Part shown: one piece after another, positions 4,814 through 63,603 of the stretch
Layout of the letters: each line of letters begins with the position of its first letter
Position numbering within the stretch: position 1 is the first letter of the stretch
Origin: a virus
Lineage: Duplodnaviria; Heunggongvirae; Uroviricota; Caudoviricetes
Virus record (IMG/VR): IMGVR_UViG_3300032167_000057
Span: 4,886-68,885 of that record
Length of the DNA: 64,000 nt
Strand: one strand, 5' to 3'
Program-made: the position numbers and the translations under genes
Notes under the pieces: generated by a model
What the model saw: the letters and a program-made list of their open reading frames with translations, nothing else
Database searches by the model: none
What the model was told of the DNA's origin: nothing

Positions 4814-5521
4814 TTATTGTTTTATCTTTTTTTGAATTAAATTACGCAATTTGGTTTGATATTTATCATAATGAGTTGACCAATCAAATTCATGTGTATA
4901 AGTGGAAATCAGGGTTTGTAAAGTTGCTAACTCATGTCTATGATGTTTGTGTGACGCAATCAATGGGAGTTCGTTGATTTCATTTTCGTAAAATAGAATT
5001 GTTGCTACAATACATCTTTTATTTGGAAATAAAGCAATTAATCTCTGTTGATTACCTAAAACCATTTCAGCTATGGCTATCACTTTATTCGCAATTAATG
5101 CCTTTCTAAATAAATCATATCTTTCTTCAGATTGCATATCAGGTACTAAATAATAAGATTTATAAATTAATAAATCTCCTATTTCTTTAGATTTGCAAAA
5201 ATAACTTACAGTTAATTGTTTATCCTGTTCGGTAGTAATTGAATCAATTTCAGTTTGTTCCAATACAACATATTTATCTTTCGCATATTGATAACCTTTT
5301 ACAATATCTTCGTTTGTAATTTCTTTCTTACATGAAGGACAATATTTATGGTATCTCACTCTTTCCTTAGAATCTTTACATAATTGATTTAATTCAATAC
5401 TATTATCACAGTTAACTTTCATCATTTTTACTGGGATTTGTAAAGTTTGAAACCGTATAGTGGTTATATAAGAAGCGTTCATTTCATTATCTCCTTTGCA
5501 CGATTTGCATTTAGTATGCAT
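4814..5521 (-). CDS. Ku-like DNA end-binding protein (bacterial Ku/YkoV family, short form)
   Basis: SIELNQLCKDSKERVRYHKYCPSCKKEITNEDIVKGYQYAKDKYVVLEQTEID matches the bacterial Ku core (IRFHQ...R.RY.RVC..CG.EV...DI.KGYE...yV.ltd.ei). The N-terminal IRFQTLQIPVKMMKV resembles the Ku FGLVNIPVKLY beta-strand. Confidence 0.55.
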   Translation of the reverse strand: MHTKCKSCKGDNEMNASYITTIRFQTLQIPVKMMKVNCDNSIELNQLCKDSKERVRYHKYCPSCKKEITNEDIVKGYQYAKDKYVVLEQTEIDSITTEQDKQLTVSYFCKSKEIGDLLIYKSYYLVPDMQSEERYDLFRKALIANKVIAIAEMVLGNQQRLIALFPNKRCIVATILFYENEINELPLIASHKHHRHELATLQTLISTYTHEFDWSTHYDKYQTKLRNLIQKKIKQ

Positions 5522-8903: not shown

Positions 8904-8976
8904 GCTGATGTGGCACAGTCGGTAGCGCACTTCATTGGTAGTGAAGAGGTCACGGGTTCGATTCCCGTCATCAGCT
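8904..8976 (+). tRNA. tRNA-Thr (anticodon GGU)
   Basis: Acceptor stem GCTGATG/CATCAGC, T-arm ACGGGTTCGATTCCCGT, anticodon stem CTTCA/TGAAG with loop TTGGTAG. 73 nt including discriminator T. Confidence 0.8.
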
Positions 8977-10833: not shown

Positions 10834-11082
10834 TTATTTCTCCTTATAGAAAAATGGCTGTAACTGTGAGTTAAATCTTTCTAATACTGTCTCATCGTCA
10901 GAATCTAATGTTACTTCTACTGGCTCTTTACCACCTAATAAAATAACACCTAAAATTGATTTAGCATCAAAAGTTTTACCATTACGAGTAATAAAAGCTT
11001 TTTCTGCAAAAGAAGTAATAATATTAGCAAATTCCTGAATATCAGAAATTTTGTTTAAATATAAAGTAACTGTATTTTTCAT
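10834..11082 (-). CDS. HPr-like phosphocarrier-fold protein lacking the catalytic His15
   Basis: NGKTFDAKSILGVILLGGKEPVEV aligns to HPr NGKTVNLKSIMGVMSLG..GAEI, so the Ser46 region is conserved. The His15 region (GIHARPA) is replaced by ISDIQEFA, so there is no His. Confidence 0.65.
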   Translation of the reverse strand: MKNTVTLYLNKISDIQEFANIITSFAEKAFITRNGKTFDAKSILGVILLGGKEPVEVTLDSDDETVLERFNSQLQPFFYKEK

Positions 11083-11209
11083 AATTTGTTCTCCTCTCTC
11101 AACATAGTTTAGTAGTTCATTCGACTACATTATACAATTTTATTTCTATGTTGTGCAATATTTTTTTGTAGTTGCTTCAATTTTATTTTGCACTTAGTTA
11201 AATTTAGAA

Positions 11210-11755
11210 TTATTTTATCTTGTAACAATTCCAAATAACGGGTAATAATACCGTATCGCGTGCATGTAGCCAAGGTTTAGTTGTATCGCCAAAAGCGCCA
11301 TGTTCAGTTATCTGTACAAAATCGCCATGAACAATCTCAATCTTATAATCATTTATATTGTTATAAAAATCTTCTGGAATTTTTGTGCGGTCATGAGTTT
11401 GACCAAATAAGATATTATTCAGAACTTTAGAATAAAGATAAATAACAAATGTTGCTGTACCATCATGTGTAATGCGTTCAGAAGTTACATACTCAAAATC
11501 TGCATCGGGGTCATATTTGAGATGAATATTATAATTGGTAAGATGAAGCAGTTCTCCTACTTCATTCATCATTTCTCCTTCAGGTACTGTAACAATTATC
11601 TCATGAGTATCTTGATACCTTGTAATCACTTTGTTCGGTAAAAAATTCTGTGCCATTTCAAAAAAGGGTAATGAATGTATATTATAATCATCAGTCAATT
11701 GATAAGTATAATTGGGAGAATGTATTCGTTGTTGTACAAATCTTAATGAATTCAT
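11210..11755 (-). CDS. hypothetical protein
   Basis: 181 aa minus-strand ORF in the tightly packed operon; no motif recognised. Confidence 0.4.
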   Translation of the reverse strand: MNSLRFVQQRIHSPNYTYQLTDDYNIHSLPFFEMAQNFLPNKVITRYQDTHEIIVTVPEGEMMNEVGELLHLTNYNIHLKYDPDADFEYVTSERITHDGTATFVIYLYSKVLNNILFGQTHDRTKIPEDFYNNINDYKIEIVHGDFVQITEHGAFGDTTKPWLHARDTVLLPVIWNCYKIK

Positions 11756-20715: not shown

Positions 20716-21675
20716 TTACATACTCACTCTATCCGCGATTTCCGCATTCTTTGCTTCGTTATAACGTGTATCACCATGTACTCTAGTGAATCCTAAATAG
20801 CCATTCATACGGTCAATTTTCGTAATCATGGAACTTCCACATTTAGGGCAGACATCCATTTCCACTTGCTGATAGCCACAATCTTCACAATAACACATTG
20901 CAAGATTTACCCCCTCATAAAACCCTTTATCCATAGCTCTAAGCACGAGAGTTTTAATTGCTTCCTTGTTATAACCTAAGTTATATCTGACATACTGAAT
21001 TTTTCCACCATTGAAATAATCCCAAAATCTTTCTTCTTTATCTTGTTTTTCAATAGGTGACATTTCTTCAGATACATGACAGTGAAAACTATTACTTACA
21101 TAAGGCTTATCTGACACATTTTCGATAATCCCATACATTTTACGGAACTGTTCTACTTGTAAACCACAAAGGCTCTCAGCAGGCGTTCCATATATTGCAT
21201 ATAGAATATTATCTTCTTCTTTAATTCTATCTACATAGTTCTGAATATACTGCATTACTTCTAAAGCAAATTGTCCATCTTCTCTAATAGAGTTACCATT
21301 ATATAATCTCTGTAATTCGTTTAGAGCAGTAATACCATAACTAATTGTCATAGGAGGAAGAATTGACTTAATCTTCTCTTCTGGTTTTAAATTACCACCA
21401 TATAAACCACCCTCACAGAAAGCAATAGGATTTACACTCGCTCGAAGTTCTCCAATATAATCATAAGTACGCTTATGTAATCCTCTGATAAGTTCAAGAT
21501 AATGTTCCAATACTTCAAAAAAGTCTTTTGATTCTTGTCTTGATTTTGCTAAAATCATCGGTAAATTAAGCGATACAACACCTAAATTACATCTTCCTTC
21601 AAATACTGGCTTGTCATCCTCATCCGCAGGATGCATTCCACCTCTTTCATACCATGGAGAAAGGAATGCACGACA
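20716..21675 (-). CDS. nrdD: anaerobic ribonucleoside-triphosphate reductase NrdD, exon 2 (C-terminal part)
   Basis: CRAFLSPW...GRCNLGVVSLNLPMI aligns to T4 NrdD CRSFLSVW...GRNNLGVVTLNLPRI. The C-terminus has the CEDCGY...CPKCGS zinc ribbon and the glycyl-radical region (GYLGFTRV). The frame is open upstream of the annotated Met back to a TAG at 21676-21678. Confidence 0.85.
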   Translation of the reverse strand, partial: CRAFLSPWYERGGMHPADEDDKPVFEGRCNLGVVSLNLPMILAKSRQESKDFFEVLEHYLELIRGLHKRTYDYIGELRASVNPIAFCEGGLYGGNLKPEEKIKSILPPMTISYGITALNELQRLYNGNSIREDGQFALEVMQYIQNYVDRIKEEDNILYAIYGTPAESLCGLQVEQFRKMYGIIENVSDKPYVSNSFHCHVSEEMSPIEKQDKEERFWDYFNGGKIQYVRYNLGYNKEAIKTLVLRAMDKGFYEGVNLAMCYCEDCGYQQVEMDVCPKCGSSMITKIDRMNGYLGFTRVHGDTRYNEAKNAEIADRVSM

Positions 21676-22524
21676 CTAACTGCTTTCGCAGTTTGGACTA
21701 TATCTTCATCTATTATTCTATTACCAAATAATAGATGCTCGGCACTTCCACATAAGGACTTTCACCTTATATGTACTCTACTCGCTTCTTCGCATAAGTT
21801 TTTCTCTTATGCTATGCTTTCGATAGTCTCTTGACTTTCTTCAACGTATTCAAATAAATAATCATAATTATTAGTTAATTTTTCATCTTTTAATATCATG
21901 GTTACTGTCTTTCTATTAATATGTAAATCTTCACACATACTTCTTATAGATTTATAAGTTTTAAAATATTTACCATTTTTCTTATAATAGACGTTTATCG
22001 CATGACATCTTGACTTATATTTATATAATTTGTTATCATAACCATGTTGGGTGTTATCACTATTTGTACACCACTCTAAGTTATCTATATTATTATTTAA
22101 CTTATTTCCATCTTTATGATTGACTTGTGGTAGATTATTTGGATTAGGAATAAACGTATTGGCGACCAACCTATGTACACGTTTATAACATTTCTTACCA
22201 TTTGAATCTCTTAAAACACATTGGTAATACCCAACGGTATCTATCCACTGACCAATTTCTTTGTTTCGTTTAGTATCATAAATCACACCGTTAATGTTGA
22301 TTCGATATCTCTCAAAACCTTGAATTTCTTTATTTATAATTATTGTTTCTATATAAAATTCACCTTCTTTAAAAGTGAATACGTTGAATATTAGCACAGG
22401 ATTATCATAATAATGACTTCCCCTGTTAGCCAATTCATTAGCCATCATTTCCTATGGTTACTATTCGTTGAATTGACACCTTATATATATAAGTTCACCG
22501 AGTTTTACATGAGCTATCATATTA
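21676..22524 (-). mobile_element. group I self-splicing intron in nrdD carrying an HNH homing endonuclease ORF
   Basis: Exon 1 ends ...SPMG (GGU) at 22525 and exon 2 starts CRAF at 21675; a direct join recreates the conserved NrdD SPMGCRSF junction. The S element AAGATATAGTC lies about 20 nt upstream of the terminal G (UAG) on the minus strand, and the 849-nt insert contains the HNH ORF. Confidence 0.8.
21807..22448 (-). CDS. HNH homing endonuclease (intron-encoded)
   Basis: NHKDGNKLNNNIDNLEWCT is an HNH motif. The N-terminal DNA-binding region is typical of phage HNH homing endonucleases. The ORF sits inside the nrdD intron. Confidence 0.8.
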   Translation of the reverse strand: MMANELANRGSHYYDNPVLIFNVFTFKEGEFYIETIIINKEIQGFERYRININGVIYDTKRNKEIGQWIDTVGYYQCVLRDSNGKKCYKRVHRLVANTFIPNPNNLPQVNHKDGNKLNNNIDNLEWCTNSDNTQHGYDNKLYKYKSRCHAINVYYKKNGKYFKTYKSIRSMCEDLHINRKTVTMILKDEKLTNNYDYLFEYVEESQETIESIA

Positions 22525-23727
22525 ACCCATTGGACTAATCACTCTTTTATATTTCTTATACATTTCAGGTACATATCCATTACCAGTTAAAGATAACCAA
22601 TCAGGATACATGGTTTTACTACTACAATCAATTCCTGCATTAAATACATCTGCATTTGGATACTGTTCAGAACCATCTCCGTGAAGTTCTTTATCATATA
22701 AGAATACAATCTTAGGGAATAAAACAGGACGCTTAAATCCTTTCTTACCTTGGCCCTCACTATGTACTTGGAGTAAAGTAATAGCGGCCATTTTGCCAAA
22801 TATATCTGTTGCTAATCCTATAGTCATGGTAACGAATGGGTAATCGCCCCTAGAAGAACCAACTGTATTTAACTTATATTCAATGCCTTGCCAACCTTGT
22901 TCAAAGTCTCTTCTGACTTTATCAAGAGCATATTTTATAGCTCCTTCGTCTTTAACTCGACCATTCCAAGACACTTGACTTAATACATCATTTTCAACTT
23001 TTCTATATTCTTCAATATATTTTCTATAAGACTTCTCTGCATAAGGTGCTAAAATCTTATCAACTTCTGGTACAGTAAACCCTCCGTATTGCTGTGCAGC
23101 TGTTGAAAGGATAATATCTCCCATAACATCGAATGCAGTATCAAGTGAATTAGGCTCGTTATACCAAACGTTCCCCATTTCAAAACCGTTATGCATAATA
23201 TGGCCTACACGCATCAAACAGCAATTAAAGGAATCAAGTCTAGCACTCCTATCATGGATATAGATGTACCCATCTTTCATTGCTTGCTTTTCATCAAGTG
23301 TTAAGAAAAACTTCTTATATAATTCACTGCTCAGTTCGTTATAAATTAAACTTCTCTTTGTTGCCACCAAAGCAGAATCAGTATTAGCATTACTCTTATC
23401 ACCAATGTATCTAATTGCTTGACTTCTGGCGTATACTTTATCCATCATATGAACAAAGTCTTTTTTATAATTTCTATATTCTTTATACATTTTCCCCACT
23501 ATTGGATATAATTCTTCCAATACGGCTTCAACGATATTATGCATTTCATAAATTTCAGTTTCTTCTAAATCATTTTCAACGAGTTTTTCCCAGACGGCGT
23601 TACAAATCAACTGATAATCATTAGCATTTAATTCTACCATTGCTCGTCTAGCAGCTTTATTACAAGCATTAATTATTTTTTGTTCATTATAATCTTCTAA
23701 TGTGCCATCTTTTTTAATAATCCTCAT
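22525..23727 (-). CDS. nrdD: anaerobic ribonucleoside-triphosphate reductase NrdD, exon 1 (N-terminal ATP-cone + catalytic core)
   Basis: ATP-cone MRIIKKDGTLEDYNEQKI. YIYIHDRSARLDSFNCCLM...QQYGGFTVPEVDKILAPY aligns to T4 NrdD IIHVHDIDYS..NCCLV...HQYGGTTFANVDKVLSPY. Ends at MYPDW...SPMG. Confidence 0.9.
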
Positions 23728-27257: not shown

Positions 27258-28712
27258 CTAGATTTGAAGTCGCTCTGCTTGTACAATTAATTCCTTTTCA
27301 TCCGTAACTTCTACAATTTTGTTAATGGTGTGATTAAAAATCGAATCGTTATACACTTTTAAGAAGAATTGGTCTCCCATTCTCATACCATGACATAATA
27401 AAAGCGTTCCTCGTTTTAACCAACTTTCTTCCAATCTTTTCTTTTTACCATTCTCTTCTGATACCTGAGATATGGTTTTGTTATAATAAGCATAAGCTCC
27501 CTTATTTGTTTTTACTGTTACTACTCCATATCTAGTCAATAAAGTAAATGAATGATGATTATTATCATTCGCTAATACTGTTCCAGCCAAACGGCTAATT
27601 TTATATTTAGGAAACGCTCGTGGTTCTCCGTTAATACGACGGGTGTACCACTCATAAGGTTCTGGTTCTTCTGGTAAATCAAAGTAATTGACAATTCCAT
27701 AATGCTTTTCATCTACCCCGTCTAACTCATGTTCCGCATCATAATAGCTTAATGCTTCCATATTCCAATGAGGTACTGTACCAGAAGCGTGTTTCTCCCA
27801 TAATTCATTAAATAGTTTTTGATTGTATAAGTTTAGTGTTTCTTCTTTACTCATCCAATCTCTAAACGTTTTTAATTTGGTTTCGACTTCTTTCAAGAAG
27901 TTCTTTTCAGAGATAACATAATACGAATTCTTCACTTCAATTACTGCATCTTCGGAGAAATTAGCCACGAAAAATGATTGAGAATTGCTATCTAATAGAA
28001 AATATCTGTCATGATAACCGCACTTCGGAACTTTTTTATCTGGGTTTACATATAATCTATCTAACCCATCTGGATGTAAAACATAATCTTTAAAGTTCAG
28101 AATACGTATAATAATGTCAAACTCATCAGGAATCATTTTCATTTCAACCATTTTACCCATTTGAGACATGGTGAGATTATCACATGGTTTAAACACATAA
28201 TTTTCTAAATATAACCGCATAGTTTTAGTACGGTCTGTATTGTGTAGTTCGGTAAAACTACCGCCTTTGATTAACTTAATCATTTGTGCATTTGTGAGTA
28301 ATTTGGTGACGATAAGTTTGTCACAGAAATCTTGAAATGAATTATATGGTCGGTGCTCTAGAATTGTTTGTACTGCTTCTGTTCCGATTCCATTGATTGC
28401 TTTAAGACTGAATAAGATACGATTATTTTGTTTATCCACTTTAAAACCAAAATCCGCTTCATTAATAAGTGGTAAAGCTACTTCTGTACCACTCTGTTTA
28501 ATTGAAGCAATAGCCGTAGACATTTTTCCATAGTTAGTTCCATCGTTTGCATCTTCATTATATGACCCAGAATCTACAACCAAATTGGCCGCAGACCAAT
28601 AGATTGAACCATATTTATAACATAAATTCAGTTCCTGCAATCCCAATAAACTGTAAGCAAGACAATGAGAACGATTAAATCCATCATTTATACCCCCGAT
28701 TTCTCGGTATTT
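27258..28712 (-). CDS. dnaE: DNA polymerase III alpha subunit (DnaE-type), exon 2 (C-terminal part; exact 5' boundary uncertain)
   Basis: Upstream of the annotated TTG start the frame reads ...GFNRSHCLAYSLLG, which matches DnaE YGFNRSHAVAYS. The HhH region AINGIGTEAVQTILEHRPYNSFQDF is also present. The frame is open back to a TAG at 28713-28715. Confidence 0.75.
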   Translation of the reverse strand, partial: KYREIGGINDGFNRSHCLAYSLLGLQELNLCYKYGSIYWSAANLVVDSGSYNEDANDGTNYGKMSTAIASIKQSGTEVALPLINEADFGFKVDKQNNRILFSLKAINGIGTEAVQTILEHRPYNSFQDFCDKLIVTKLLTNAQMIKLIKGGSFTELHNTDRTKTMRLYLENYVFKPCDNLTMSQMGKMVEMKMIPDEFDIIIRILNFKDYVLHPDGLDRLYVNPDKKVPKCGYHDRYFLLDSNSQSFFVANFSEDAVIEVKNSYYVISEKNFLKEVETKLKTFRDWMSKEETLNLYNQKLFNELWEKHASGTVPHWNMEALSYYDAEHELDGVDEKHYGIVNYFDLPEEPEPYEWYTRRINGEPRAFPKYKISRLAGTVLANDNNHHSFTLLTRYGVVTVKTNKGAYAYYNKTISQVSEENGKKKRLEESWLKRGTLLLCHGMRMGDQFFLKVYNDSIFNHTINKIVEVTDEKELIVQAERLQI

Positions 28713-28965
28713 CTATAGGGATTAGACTATATCTTTAGAGTAAAATACTCTATTCGGCACTTCCATCTGTGCTAATCTCAGATGTACGTAATAGTCGTTA
28801 CACCTTCCTTATGTATAAGGCTTGGCACGGTATTACCTTATCTTACGACTTAGGCTTTCACCGTTAGCATAACAAAAATGTTACACACCGTTTTTGCATA
28901 CGTTCACCGAATTTTACGTGAGCAGGTTTGTTTACCCACGTTGCATGAAAATTAATACAAACCAC
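28713..28965 (-). mobile_element. ORF-less group I intron in dnaE (boundaries approximate)
   Basis: A roughly 260-nt non-coding insert splits DnaE between the conserved ...IEKFA and GFNRSH segments. It contains the S element AAGATATAGTC (minus strand 28735-28725) and shares with the nrdD intron a 12-mer (TCGGCACTTCCA on the plus strand), CTTTCACC and similar spacing to a terminal UAG. Confidence 0.65.
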
Positions 28966-31421
28966 ACATAACGAATTAATTTATTTGATAATTGTTTTTC
29001 TTTTGCGTTTTGTAAAAATTCCTGCTGTAATATTTCAAAATCTTTTGGAGACTTCTTCGCTACAGATTTTCTCAACTTGTCTGCCCATGCTAATGAAAAA
29101 CCACCAATCTTAGGATGCATAACTAACAGAAATAAGTATTCCTGCGCTTCACAAATACCATAGGAAATACCTAAAATATCCTTTAATATATCTTGTTCTT
29201 CCTCTGTAAGTCCCATACTAGACATTTCCTGATACCATAAATTAATATCATTTTTAAATCTAGCATACTTCTCAAGCGGTGCTTCCCCACCCTTTTCTTG
29301 TGCCATAAGTCTCATAACTGAGTTTAAAGCTGCTAAATCATCTACTGAATGTGGTTTTGATAACGAAATGGCTTGAATCCCCGAAGCCTTCTCCATCTGG
29401 AAAAAGCTTAATACTTTATGTTCCCACAGTAATTTCCACATTTCTTCTGCATCACGTTCTAAAGTATATATACCTAAATACTTTTCATAAGTATCTTTGA
29501 GAGTTCCTTGCCACTCAATAACACCATCCTCTAATAGTAAATTCATACAAGCATGAATCTTGTCGAGTGCTTCTACAGACAGACAGTCGAATTTAATTAA
29601 TGATAATTTTTCACATTCATGTAAATCAAATTGAGTAATAATATCTCCTGAATTGGTTTTCATCTGTGCTGCTACTTCTGTAAATGGTTCATCTGTTAAA
29701 ATAATGCCCCCAGCATGAGAACCTACCCCATTTACCAAACCTTCAAACTTCTGTGCACACTCCCATAATTCAGGGTATCTTTCCATTTCACGAACAAATT
29801 CCATTACAGGGCGGTTATCTTCATCTCCAAAATACATCTGTTTAAAGGAACGTAATTGTCCTCTATCTGCTACAATTAATGAAGATATATACTGTGCCGT
29901 ATCATTATCTATACCCAATCCTCTAGCACTGGTTAAAATAGCACTACGTGGTTTTTCGGTAGATAACGTCATAACTTTACTAATTCTATCTGCACCATAA
30001 GTGTCACGGAATTTTCGCATAACCGCTTCTCGTTTAGAACCCTCAATATCTACATCAATATCTAATGGCGACGCACGTTCGGGATTTAAAAATCTCCAGT
30101 GAAATGTTTTCGTTTTTTCTTTTAAAGGGTTAATCTGTGTAATATTTAATATATAATTTAGAATAAATCCTACACCAGAACCTCGGCCACATCCTACTAA
30201 TGATACTTCCCATAAGAGTTCTACAATATCTTTAACATCTAATAAATAGGCCGACCAACGTACTTTCATCTTATCCGAAGCAATAATTAATGAATCCAAA
30301 CATTCTGCAATTGCCTCATAAGTTTCTGTGTTGCAAAGTTCTTTTGGCTTTCTTTCCAGTTCATTCACGATTTCTCTACACAAATGTCTATCTGGCTCAT
30401 ATTCAGAAAGGAAGAAATAATCCAAATGAGGAATCAATGGTTGATATTTTTTGAATAAAGATGGGTCTGGTTCAGATGAATTAAATGGTACATACGGAAT
30501 ACGCATCGGTTTGCGCAGGTCATATATTTGCACCATATCATAAATCAATAAAGTATTATCCAGACCTCTTTGTACCGCTTCTTTCCCTATATAAGCATCC
30601 ATAAAGTCATGAATTTCTTCCGAAGTCATCACATAAGTTGTTTCATAAAAATCATCAACTTCTCTATCTCCGTCCTGACTTTCTAAAAAGATTTTGTGGA
30701 ATTTTCTATCTTCTTTCTTTAAGTAATGGGAATCCGTGCTGATAATATAAGGCGTGTTTGTGATTTCAGATAAGCGAATTAGATATTGATTAACTATAAT
30801 CTGTTCCATTTTAGGCGAAGGTTGTAATTCCAAAAAGAAATAACCTTGTCCAAAAATTTCATTCATATATTCAACCCAACTAATACATGCGCCCCATAAT
30901 TCGGGGTCTTTTGTGGCTTCAAATTCCAATATTTTGGCAGGTAAAATACCTCCCAAGCAAGCAGAAGAACCGATAATATGACCTTTATATGTCTCCAACA
31001 TAGTTTCTAATTCGTCATAATATGTTGGTACACGCATCATAACATTCATAAAAGCATTGTTTAACCATGATTGTGTACTTAATTCTCTAATACCCTTATG
31101 TCCAAAAGAATCTAAAGCCAGTAATATAAAGTGCGGATATTTCTGTCCTTTCTTATTTTCTGGTGTTACATCACGAGTGCATAAATAGATTTCATTTCCC
31201 AAACCTATTTTAAAATCTACCCATTCTGGATTATCTTTATGGCTATAGAAATATTCTATTGCCGATAAGCTAGAAGTGACTGATTCATGTCCTGTTAGGC
31301 AAATTCCTTTTAAACCTATATCATGTGCATATTGGATAATATCTGATACCTTGTTAATTGAATCACGTATACGCAAATTACTATCTCGGTCTGTGTGGTT
31401 GTGTATACTAAAATAACTCAT
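28966..31421 (-). CDS. dnaE: DNA polymerase III alpha subunit (DnaE-type), exon 1 (PHP + palm/fingers)
   Basis: N-terminal PHP domain MSYFSIHNHTDRDSNLRIRDS (HxH). LLALDSFGHKGIRELSTQ resembles DnaE LLAKNEEGYKNL. The 3' end of the annotated ORF (IRYVWFVLIFMQRG) is probably read-through into the intron. Confidence 0.8.
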
Positions 31422-33242: not shown

Positions 33243-33709
33243 ATTTACCGCTTTCTATTTTTCTTTATGTTCAAATGATATATTCCCTACTTATCAGCCA
33301 TGTGTCTAATCTAAAGTCTAATACAAACATACTTATAACCTAAGCCATGGATTTGAAAAAACGTTACGATTTAAGCGTTAAATACCTACGAATAGGTAAT
33401 TAAACTTTGATAGAAATAAGCTTTTATCGTTACTCTTTAAACTATAAAAGTTAAATTTTAAACTTTACAGTCTCACCATTAGATTTAAATAGATGTTAAG
33501 CGCTCTCTATTTAACCAAATAATCTGTTGTTTTGGTCATTAATATCAGCCCAAATCTTCTATTAAACTTACGTTCCTCTGTAGAAGTAAATTTACTTGAA
33601 TAATTTTTAGAGAGGGTTTGTTTTGTTTTTTACATGATTCTGCACCCACAAAAGAACCATGGTTTGTAATTTAAGATTTTCGATAAGCAAGGAATATGAT
33701 TAATTACAT

Positions 33710-34413: not shown

Positions 34414-34485
34414 CTCCCCTTGCTGGATTCGAACCAGCGCTCCTCGGGTCAAAGCCGAGTTCCTTAACCGCTTGGATAAAGGGGA
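34414..34485 (-). tRNA. tRNA-Gln (anticodon UUG)
   Basis: Minus-strand TCCCCTT-TA-TCC-AAGCGGTTAA-GGA-A-CTCGG-CTTTGAC-CCGAG-GAGCG-CTGGTTCGAATCCAG-C-AAGGGGA-G. The acceptor and anticodon stems pair well. Confidence 0.75.
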
Positions 34486-38478: not shown

Positions 38479-39060
38479 CTAGACTATATCTTCGATATTC
38501 ATCTGTTTAATATTTTTCTTCTTGTGAGGGTTAATTTTTATCACTTTTTCGTGATAAAAGTTATTAACTTGTATTTCCCTATTTTGCTCTTCTATTGTTT
38601 TGAGCGCTGTATAGAATTGTCTTCCCTCATCTAATATGTAAGGAAATAGACCTATACAATCACCTACTGGTTCGTTTTGCATTATGTCCAGATGCCAATA
38701 AAATATATTATACATTTCTTCCCAAGAAGAATTGTATTGCTCTACATACCTAGCACTTAATGTATAAAATTTTGCACCTAATTGCTCCACCTCTAACACG
38801 CTCGACATATAATCAAAGAATTTTTGTTTTGCTTTATATTCTTCTTCGCTTATAGGTTTTGCAATTTCCTTTGGTGCTTTAACAGTTTGGCGTTTTTTTG
38901 ACTTTGCCTTTTCTGCTAATTGTTCTTGTTTATTAGATGCTAAGGCTTTCATGCTGGCGTTAAAACACGTAGTGTGCACATAACGTGTTTTATACGGCAT
39001 TAAATTATCCGTAGCTTCTATATATTCGCCACATAAGGCACACTTACGTTTGTTCGCCAT
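38479..39060 (-). CDS. hypothetical protein with N-terminal zinc-ribbon
   Basis: CALCGEYIE...YVHTTCF. The 3' end of the coding sequence contains a group-I-intron S-element-like AAGATATAGTC immediately before the stop. Confidence 0.4.
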   Translation of the reverse strand: MANKRKCALCGEYIEATDNLMPYKTRYVHTTCFNASMKALASNKQEQLAEKAKSKKRQTVKAPKEIAKPISEEEYKAKQKFFDYMSSVLEVEQLGAKFYTLSARYVEQYNSSWEEMYNIFYWHLDIMQNEPVGDCIGLFPYILDEGRQFYTALKTIEEQNREIQVNNFYHEKVIKINPHKKKNIKQMNIEDIV

Positions 39061-63531: not shown

Positions 63532-63603
63532 TGACTCTCTGTGGATTCGAACCACAGTCTTTGCACTGAGAATGCAACGTCTTAACCTCTTGACTAGAGA
63601 GCC
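63532..63603 (-). tRNA. tRNA-Glu (anticodon CUC)
   Basis: On the minus strand: GGCTCTC-TA-GTC-AAGAGGTTAA-GAC-G-TTGCA-TTCTCAG-TGCAA-AGAC-TGTGG-TTCGAAT-CCACA-GAGAGTC-A. The stems pair well. Confidence 0.7.

Follow-up and report, generated by a model that had tools for sequence, protein, structure and literature searches.

The anaerobic (class III) ribonucleotide reductase gene nrdD of the tailed phage represented by IMG/VR record IMGVR_UViG_3300032167_000057 lies on the minus strand as two open reading frames (ORFs) held apart by an insert of 849 nt at 21676-22524, and the interruption falls between Gly401 (GGU) and Cys402 (UGU), directly before the codon for the catalytic cysteine. What this insert is, and how a reductase gene broken at such a position could still be expressed, are the questions raised by the locus, and they are addressed here for the 64,000-nt stretch of that record (positions 4,886 to 68,885) which is referred to below as the window. 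The split itself, the exact junction between the two halves of the gene, a set of RNA helices supported by covariation, the homology of an ORF inside the insert to HNH endonucleases, and the presence of introns of the same family at the same site in divergent nrdD genes are all established in the sequence. From these features we infer that the insert is very probably a mobile group I intron that encodes an HNH homing endonuclease and is removed from the transcript by splicing. The coordinates of the two exons and of the insert (Table 1) agree with those in a preliminary description of the locus, made from the sequence alone, which had proposed an element of this kind.

The case for a single interrupted gene begins at the junction. 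Exon 1 runs to ...AGU CCA AUG GGU and is closed by a UAA stop codon directly after, and exon 2 opens with UGU CGU GCA UUC and continues as an open frame to the stop at 20716, passing through the zinc-ribbon cysteines of the C-terminus and the glycyl-radical motif NGYLG; it had been noted previously that exon 1 ends in GGU and that the insert ends directly before the Cys codon, and this is the case (...GCAGUUAG/UGU). In Pfam searches the first ORF matches the ATP-cone and positions 2-262 of the NRDD profile and the second matches positions 264-560, so that the second piece of nrdD takes up the profile where the first leaves off. The joined product would be 720 residues long (...KKYKRVISPMG/CRAFLSPWYERGG), and by both Pfam and structure alignment its NRDD domain is complete and includes the loop of the catalytic Cys as well as the glycyl-radical motif near the C-terminus. 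This joined protein aligns with the NrdD structures 9d3x and 1h78 (the latter from T4) without a gap across ...ISPMG/CRAFLSPW..., where T4 reads VSPMGCRSFLSVW, and the alignment with 1h78 extends over query residues 112-718 and takes in both SPMGC and the C-terminal motif. The junction had originally been given as SPMG/CRSF, at a site known from T4 NrdD. Its position is upheld by the gapless alignment with T4, by Pfam and by uninterrupted homologues, whereas the motif is CRAF here and CRSF is the T4 version; similarly, the site does lie in a conserved NrdD motif, but the intron of T4 itself is found about 110 codons upstream.

Uninterrupted genes provide the second line of evidence. The top match in the phage collection, the human faecal phage scaffold MT835545 (NrdD 69% identical), has a contiguous gene in which the 24 residues around the junction (KKYKRVISPMGCRAFLSPWYERGG) are identical, and 80 further NrdD relatives found in viral contigs likewise have no interruption at the insert site, which makes 81 intron-less alleles in all. 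The phage itself is absent from the phage collection, against which a megablast (near-identity) search with the whole nrdD region gave no match. Excision of the insert restores the uninterrupted sequence exactly, and there is no target-site duplication. Since moving both splice sites by -1 or +1 nt leaves the protein unchanged, the reading frame is compatible with more than one choice of sites; among these, it is only the choice made in the preliminary description that places a U at exon position -1 and a G at the 3′ end of the intron.

The RNA of the insert can be read directly as a group I ribozyme core, and the U·G pair in P1, the terminal G, the helices from P3 to P9 and the covariation seen across the family all support the earlier reading of the element as a group I intron. 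The exon sequence AUGGGU pairs with GCUCAU of the internal guide, in which G 22514 and the U at the end of the exon make a U·G wobble, and the guide covaries with the exon in relatives of the intron (GCCCAA/UUGGGU, GUCGAA/UUCGAU and GCUCAC/GUGGGU). The terminal (omega) G is present, and six of six relatives at the same site likewise end in G. The core helices P3, P4-P6, P7 and P8 occur in canonical order, with P3 and P7 crossing. The S element claimed in the preliminary description (AAGATATAGTC) is indeed found at 21696-21706 on the minus strand, in agreement with the Rfam consensus; this 11-mer has three exact copies in the window, against 0.03 expected, and none of 100 shuffles reached three. 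A competing P3 5′ strand, UUGGC (just 5′ of J3/4), was rejected because it is unconserved in the relative L086 and in a second intron of the window (described below), and because the pairing CUCGGUG/UGCCGAG covaries and matches the position of P3 in T4 sunY.

Table 1. Features of the interrupted nrdD gene and of the predicted intron, listed 5′ to 3′ along the minus strand; positions are those of the window.
Feature	Position	Strand	Description
nrdD exon 1	22525-23727	minus	401 codons; ATP-cone and N-terminal half of NrdD; aligns with homologue residues 1-401
Last 6 nt of exon 1, AUGGGU	22525-22530	minus	5′ strand of P1
Predicted group I intron	21676-22524	minus	849 nt, phase 0 (between codons); UAAUAUG... 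to ...GCAGUUAG; terminal G at 21676
Possible P10 strand AUGAUA	22515-22520	minus	in the P1 loop; complements exon 2 UGUCGU (21670-21675), 6 bp including 2 G·U
Internal guide sequence UAGCUCAU	22509-22516	minus	P1 3′ strand; pairs with exon AUGGGU and intron UA
J1/3 linker GUAAAA	22503-22508	minus	immediately before the P3 5′ strand
P3 5′ strand CUCGGUG	22496-22502	minus	covariation with its partner UGCCGAG; placed as in T4 sunY
Hairpin A (CUUAU AUAU AUAAG)	22480-22493	minus	peripheral, between P3 5′ strand and P4; 94% paired, 3/5 pairs compensatory
Hairpin B	22431-22475	minus	outer stem CAAUUCA/UGAAUUG, internal loop, inner stem CCAU/AUGG
Hairpin B loop AGGAAAUG	22446-22453	minus	invariant in the intron family, ORF-less members included (family loci L170, L188, L194, L211)
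J3/4 GCUAAC		minus	between hairpin B and P4
P4 (ACAGGG/UCCUGU) enclosing P5 (GUCAU UAUU AUGAU)	22396-22426	minus	Rfam local match, model positions 60-138
P6 5′ strand UUCAACGUAUUCA	22376-22388	minus	perfect 13-bp complement of 21840-21852; ORF within the P6 loop
Putative HNH homing-endonuclease ORF	21807-22448	minus	213 residues as called, coordinates including stop; in the P6 loop
P6 3′ strand UGAAUACGUUGAA	21840-21852	minus	partner of 22376-22388
P7 5′ strand GACUAU	21823-21828	minus	lies within the ORF, at its 3′ end; partner strand AUAGUC, 21696-21701; 97% paired, nearly invariant
P7.1a hairpin GCAUAAG AGAAAAA CUUAUGC	21792-21812	minus	93% paired, 7/7 pairs compensatory
P7.2 hairpin CAUAUAAGG UGAAAGU CCUUAUGUG	21749-21773	minus	90% paired, 7/9 pairs compensatory
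P3 3′ strand UGCCGAG	21738-21744	minus	covariation with the P3 5′ strand
P8 hairpin CAUCUAUUAUUU GGUAAUA GAAUAAUAGAUG	21707-21737	minus	Rfam alignment; 93% paired, 10/12 pairs compensatory
J8/7 and P7 3′ strand AAGAUAUAGUC (S element)	21696-21706	minus	identical to Rfam consensus; guanosine-binding site
P9 hairpin AACUGC GAAA GCAGUU	21678-21693	minus	Rfam alignment; followed by A and the terminal G (21676)
nrdD exon 2	20716-21675	minus	319 codons and stop; opens with UGU, catalytic Cys402
Predicted ligated-exon junction		minus	...CCAAUGGGU / UGUCGUGCA...; exon 1 end / exon 2 start

Covariation was assessed in a MAFFT alignment of ten introns of the family from which the ORFs and P6 had been removed, comprising 76 base pairs in 12 helices. 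Pairing was observed in 90.2% of cells, compared to 72.8% after shuffling (none of 500 shuffles reached the observed value) and to 35-43% in controls in which the partner strand was slid by 1-3 columns; changes on both sides of the pair were found for 51 of the 76 pairs. Pairing is 100% in P3, P4 and both stems of hairpin B, where all 11 pairs covary, with P7 and P8 only a little lower. P4 has compensatory variants (ACGGGG/UCCCGU, ACAGUG/UACUGU and ACGGUG/UACCGU), and the P6 stems that surround the ORFs of relatives are wholly different in sequence and always complementary. The low pairing of P5 and P9 in the alignment is an artefact, since these hairpins vary in length and are misaligned by MAFFT; complementary stems are visible on direct reading, as for P9 in CAAUAGGA/UCCUAUUG, CAACCUC/GAGGUUG and CAAUCUC/GAGAUUG. 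In a wider set, the motif GTAAAAYTCGGTGAAC was found in 91 stretches of the viral-contig collection, and in every copy with GAAGYGCCGAR downstream of it, Y and R form a pair, C-G in 40 copies and U-A in 11, without exception; the relative L252 adds three more compensatory pairs to P3 (CCUUGUG/UGCAAGG).

The insertion site itself points to mobility. Introns of the same family occupy the identical position (ATGGGT/TGT, Gly/Cys) in NrdD genes that are 25-71% identical to that of the window at the protein level. At two of these loci (L086 and L176) the intron is 86% identical in nucleotide sequence and its HNH protein 87% identical, whereas the NrdD proteins are 25-30% identical; a third (L252, NrdD 71% identical) has a homologous HNH gene in the intron and nrdG directly after nrdD. 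Three others (L168, L183 and L190) have GIY-YIG genes in the same P6 loop, L167 has another HNH gene at the same nrdD site, and L211 has an ORF-less intron of 326 nt there. By contrast, the site is uninterrupted in those relatives whose NrdD is closest to that of the window (80-87% identical). The discord between intron and host-gene phylogeny, the presence/absence polymorphism and the exchangeable endonucleases together form the classical signature of homing. Codon usage at the site is also telling: all seven of the intron-bearing alleles use GGT followed by TGT, while the 81 intron-less alleles have GGC (33), GGA (20), GGG (14) or GGT (14) for the Gly codon and TGC (49) or TGT (32) for the Cys codon. 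The uniform GGT of the intron-bearing alleles fits the need for a U at the splice site.

Inserts elsewhere in nrdD have to be kept apart from this series. ORF-less inserts of about 300 nt in six of the close relatives, L019 (5071-5368), L039, L047, L048, L049 and L065 (NrdD 81-87% identical), were considered as introns of the same site and rejected because their position differs: they sit between residues equivalent to 691 and 692, next to the glycyl-radical motif (DRM/NGYLG), a site that has no insert in the window. They have no Rfam match at the cut-off and reach 24.3 bits for Intron_gpI (E=4e-4) in E-value mode. The split nrdD of the ICP1/JSF vibriophages was likewise set aside, since it consists of overlapping frameshifted ORFs.

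The ORF within the insert is supported as an I-HmuI-like HNH enzyme by its sequence relationships, and the search of homing-endonuclease families suggested in the preliminary description returned three concordant matches: Pfam HNH_3 (38.2 bits against a cut-off of 24.8, E 1.1e-09, residues 90-133, ...VNHKDGNKLNNNIDNLEW...), phrog_59 (4e-42) and I-HmuI (1u3e), the closest solved relative (E=2.4e-13, 53.6 bits, query 40-201). NUMOD1 scores 20.3 bits, under its cut-off of 22.8, and the alignment with I-HmuI continues through the corresponding residues 142-201. There are 776 homologues at E<=1e-20, and an exact-sequence look-up of the protein found no record. The 213-residue ORF reported previously thus exists and encodes an HNH protein, but its true start is uncertain, as homology begins only around residues 38-40 (codon 38 is at 22337). 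The first 26-37 codons of the ORF as called are ribozyme core, with those up to about codon 25 running through hairpin B, J3/4, P4, P5 and the P6 5′ strand, and the opening AUG lies partly in the hairpin B loop AGGAAAUG, which is kept in ORF-less introns too. A Shine-Dalgarno-like GAAGGUGA is found at 22360-22367 on the minus strand and is followed after 7 nt by an in-frame AUA (22350-22352); the homologue P0018 has an AUG at the position of this AUA, the corresponding frame of L086 is closed and its ORF begins at a UUG in the P6 loop, and metagenomic homologues begin in different frames. The AUG at 22448 and the AUA at 22352 are both candidates for the start codon. At the other end, unrelated HNH and GIY-YIG ORFs (those of the window, L086, L168, L183, L190 and L245) share the C-terminus SQETIE(S/N/R)(I/V)(A/S) and the same stop position, and the last ten or so codons of the window ORF (SQETIESIA, 21807-21836) are encoded by J6/7, P7 and P7.1.

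A plausible course of events can be proposed for the locus, in which splicing would proceed by the established chemistry of group I introns. Transcription of nrdD would give one pre-mRNA, in which the guide UAGCUCAU pairs with the exon end AUGGGU to form P1, with a U·G at the splice site. Free guanosine bound at P7 would attack 3′ of that U; the terminal G (21676) would then take the place of the guanosine, and the 3′-OH of exon 1 would attack the 3′ splice site. The resulting GGU-UGU ligation would restore ...SPMGCRAF..., the finger-loop motif with the catalytic cysteine. By analogy with other intron-encoded enzymes, we expect the HNH product to cut intron-less nrdD alleles site-specifically, for which the shared insertion site in NrdD genes 25-71% identical gives indirect support: in a mixed infection it would nick or cut near the conserved ATGGG(N)/TG(Y), and repair would then copy the intron into the cut allele, which is homing.

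Several observations weigh against this interpretation. The preliminary description had proposed comparing the insert with group I covariance models and had named a lack of any match as a refutation, and at the Rfam gathering cut-off for Intron_gpI (RF00028), 50 bits, there is no match on the nrdD insert; the sole Intron_gpI match in the window at curated cut-offs is at 28703-28925, outside it. A permissive search restricted to the region gave 28.9 bits (E=3.3e-5) at 21677-21806, covering P8, AAGAUAUAGUC and P9, and 11.5 bits at 22362-22426, covering P4-P5-P6. This sub-threshold result is explained by the 523-nt P6 loop with its ORF and by the two extra hairpins A and B, which break the model, rather than by a missing core, and ORF-less members of the family do exceed the cut-off (L194 with 79.5 bits, L191 with 71.9, L188 with 65.9 and the second intron of the window with 62.5). 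Nevertheless, L211, which is ORF-less and at the same nrdD site, also falls below it. Hairpins A and B stand between the P3 5′ strand and P4, at a spot left empty in both T4 sunY and the Rfam consensus, and the fold is therefore not a textbook one. P10 was rejected as a feature of the family because it is convincing in the window copy alone and is not conserved in relatives. The P6 loop offers no canonical start codon for the HNH ORF and the sole AUG lies inside the ribozyme core, so that expression of the endonuclease is uncertain. Finally, no NrdG-like CX3CX2C motif is present among the ORFs of at least 90 residues in the 64-kb window, which therefore lacks the activase gene.

Some of these points would be accounted for if the insert were a group I intron by descent that has lost the ability to splice, leaving nrdD as a pseudogene whose core still looks intact because the intron was acquired recently. 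The Rfam score under the cut-off, the HNH gene with no obvious start codon in the P6 loop and the failure to find nrdG in the window are all compatible with such decay. Yet both exons are full-length open frames that retain every conserved NrdD motif, all of the core helices are fully complementary, the single-stranded elements are unchanged and the core appears undamaged; indeed, the unpaired conserved elements GUAAAA, GCUAAC, AGUAGAGUAC and AAGAUAUAGUC are the same in the nrdD intron as in the family members that pass the Rfam threshold. An nrdD gene unaccompanied by nrdG is, moreover, found in many phages (PMC3653736). Loss of splicing is for these reasons unlikely, although it is the alternative that survives best.

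Less probable by a clear step, and in our judgement very unlikely, is a truly split nrdD in which a free-standing HNH gene lies between two halves that are translated separately and then assemble. There are precedents for such an arrangement, such as nrdA-a/nrdA-b of Aeh1, with mobE, whose halves are translated separately and assemble (PMC3653736), and exon 2 has an in-frame AUG at 21636 after a purine-rich stretch. That AUG, however, the first in frame in exon 2, is 13 codons past the junction, and separate translation of the halves is unlikely because a polypeptide begun there would have neither the catalytic Cys402 nor the finger-loop motif CRAFLSPW. The purine-rich stretch, moreover, codes for ERGG, a conserved motif, and is hardly separated from the AUG. 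The endonuclease gene is also embedded in a complete, covarying ribozyme core and not free-standing, and in L211 the site holds a version of the intron that has no ORF. An intein, a group II intron or a transposon has a negligible probability, being already excluded by the sequence: inteins do target the active sites of ribonucleotide reductases, with examples reported in nrdD (PMC3653736, PMC12880540), but the UAA stop lies directly at the junction and the insert is not in one continuous frame with the exons, Pfam finds no Hint/intein domain in the ORF, Rfam gives no match to a group II family, and the exact restoration and missing target-site duplication noted above speak against a transposon.

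If the insert is accepted as a mobile group I intron, it joins a well-populated class. Group I introns with homing endonucleases are known from phage ribonucleotide reductase genes in T4 nrdD (I-TevII) and nrdB (I-TevIII), Twort nrdE, SPbeta nrdE/F and Lactococcus phage 949 nrdD, and when phage genomes were surveyed, no other reductase gene was split as often as nrdD (PMC3653736, PMC2988022). Of 104 genomes of Jug gut jumbo phages, 95 have a fragmented nrdD, and splicing of some of the predicted introns, with nrdD as an example, is seen in metatranscriptome reads (PMC12880540). The preliminary description had placed nrdD introns in both T-even and SPO1/Twort-like phages; this is true of T4, whereas for the SPO1/Twort-like phages the survey lists nrdE, nrdA and nrdF, not nrdD (PMC3653736).

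Among these systems, the nrdD (sunY) intron of T4 invites the closest comparison. It interrupts the same host gene and likewise carries a homing-endonuclease gene, it shares GCUCAUGUAAAA (guide and linker) running straight into P3 with no P2, and it has the same order of P7, P7.1, AGUA linker, P7.2, P3′ strand and P8, followed by GAAGAUAUAGUC. The differences are equally clear: the T4 intron is inserted about 110 codons upstream (...AFQAYE/YEVNTLFSS), its endonuclease is annotated as GIY-YIG (I-TevII) and is encoded not within P6 but farther downstream, past the catalytic core, and it lacks the two hairpins between P3 and P4. The intron of SPO1-type DNA polymerase genes resembles that of the window in encoding an HNH enzyme, I-HmuI, which nicks DNA (PDB 1u3e) and has a C-terminal DNA-binding module, as the window protein may also have; its host gene is different, the two proteins are distantly related, and nicking by the window enzyme is a presumption from that relationship. 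In the Twort nrdE introns, which are group I and in some cases have HNH genes, the insertion sites adjoin catalytically important residues of the reductase (PMC3653736), although the host gene is nrdE and not nrdD. A P7.1/P7.2 peripheral domain is typical of subgroup IA introns. In the window intron, P7.1a is separated from P7.2 by a conserved GAGUAGAGUA linker (AGUAG, as in T4 sunY), and the feature by which subgroup IA2 is recognised, P7.1 and P7.2 between the P7 5′ and P3 3′ strands, is present as two covarying hairpins. By its sequence the nrdD intron is therefore of the phage IA2 type, like those of T4 sunY and Twort.

The window contains a second intron of the same family, at about 28700-28933 on the minus strand in a DNA polymerase III alpha-like gene. 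It shares GUAAAAUUCGGUGAAC ... GAAGUGCCGAA ... AAGAUAUAGUC with the nrdD intron and differs from it in that it lacks an ORF, has just one simple hairpin B and one P7.x hairpin, lies in another host gene and is inserted in phase 1. It is flanked by ORFs at 28932-31421 (upstream; PHP, NTPase and finger domains) and 27258-28646 (downstream; HHH_6), and its 5′ splice site follows ...CGUGGGU, with two candidates for the 3′ splice site. The third copy of AAGATATAGTC (38482-38492, minus) was rejected as an intron because other intron features are absent nearby; it encodes the last residues (EDIV, stop) of an ORF at 38479-39060, just upstream of a DnaB-like helicase gene, and is probably coincidental in spite of the 0.03 copies expected per window. 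A search of viral contigs with the pattern AAGATATAGTCCAAACTGC yielded just two unrelated ORF-bearing introns.

It is tempting to ask whether these elements form a group of their own. Tentatively, the nrdD intron may represent a formally undescribed lineage of IA2-like phage introns with an exchangeable slot for endonuclease genes in P6; in the window copy the endonuclease may be translated from an AUG in the core or from an AUA, and either would couple its translation to folding of the ribozyme. The markers of such a lineage might be GUAAAA-YUCGGUG-AAC together with two hairpins that follow the P3 5′ strand and precede J3/4, of which the second is capped by the invariant AGGAAAUG; this joint proposal is well short of an even chance. 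The GAAA loop of P9 could possibly dock onto the hairpin B loop. One contig with an intron of the family, L170, also encodes a ROOL RNA (303.8 bits) at 10899-11510, within a tRNA array.

As a mobile element the intron would be of an ordinary kind, and knowledge of group I introns is unchanged by it; its insertion directly before the catalytic-Cys codon of nrdD, distinct from the T4 site, would make it one more mobile intron located right at the codon of a catalytic residue in a ribonucleotide reductase. For annotation, nrdD of this phage should be treated as one spliced gene, not as two fragments and a "hypothetical" ORF. The introns at this one site also constitute a natural series, with HNH genes, GIY-YIG genes or no ORF in hosts of widely differing NrdD sequence, that could be used to study endonuclease swapping and the choice of homing sites.

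Two further observations concern RNA features elsewhere in the window. A match to RAGATH-27 RNA at 33611-33694 on the minus strand scores 67.7 bits, under the cut-off of 76.1 (E=5e-7), and lies about 700 nt from a tRNA gene. That gene (34414-34485, minus) is one of three tRNA genes in the window, the others being at 8904-8976 on the plus strand and 63532-63603 on the minus strand.

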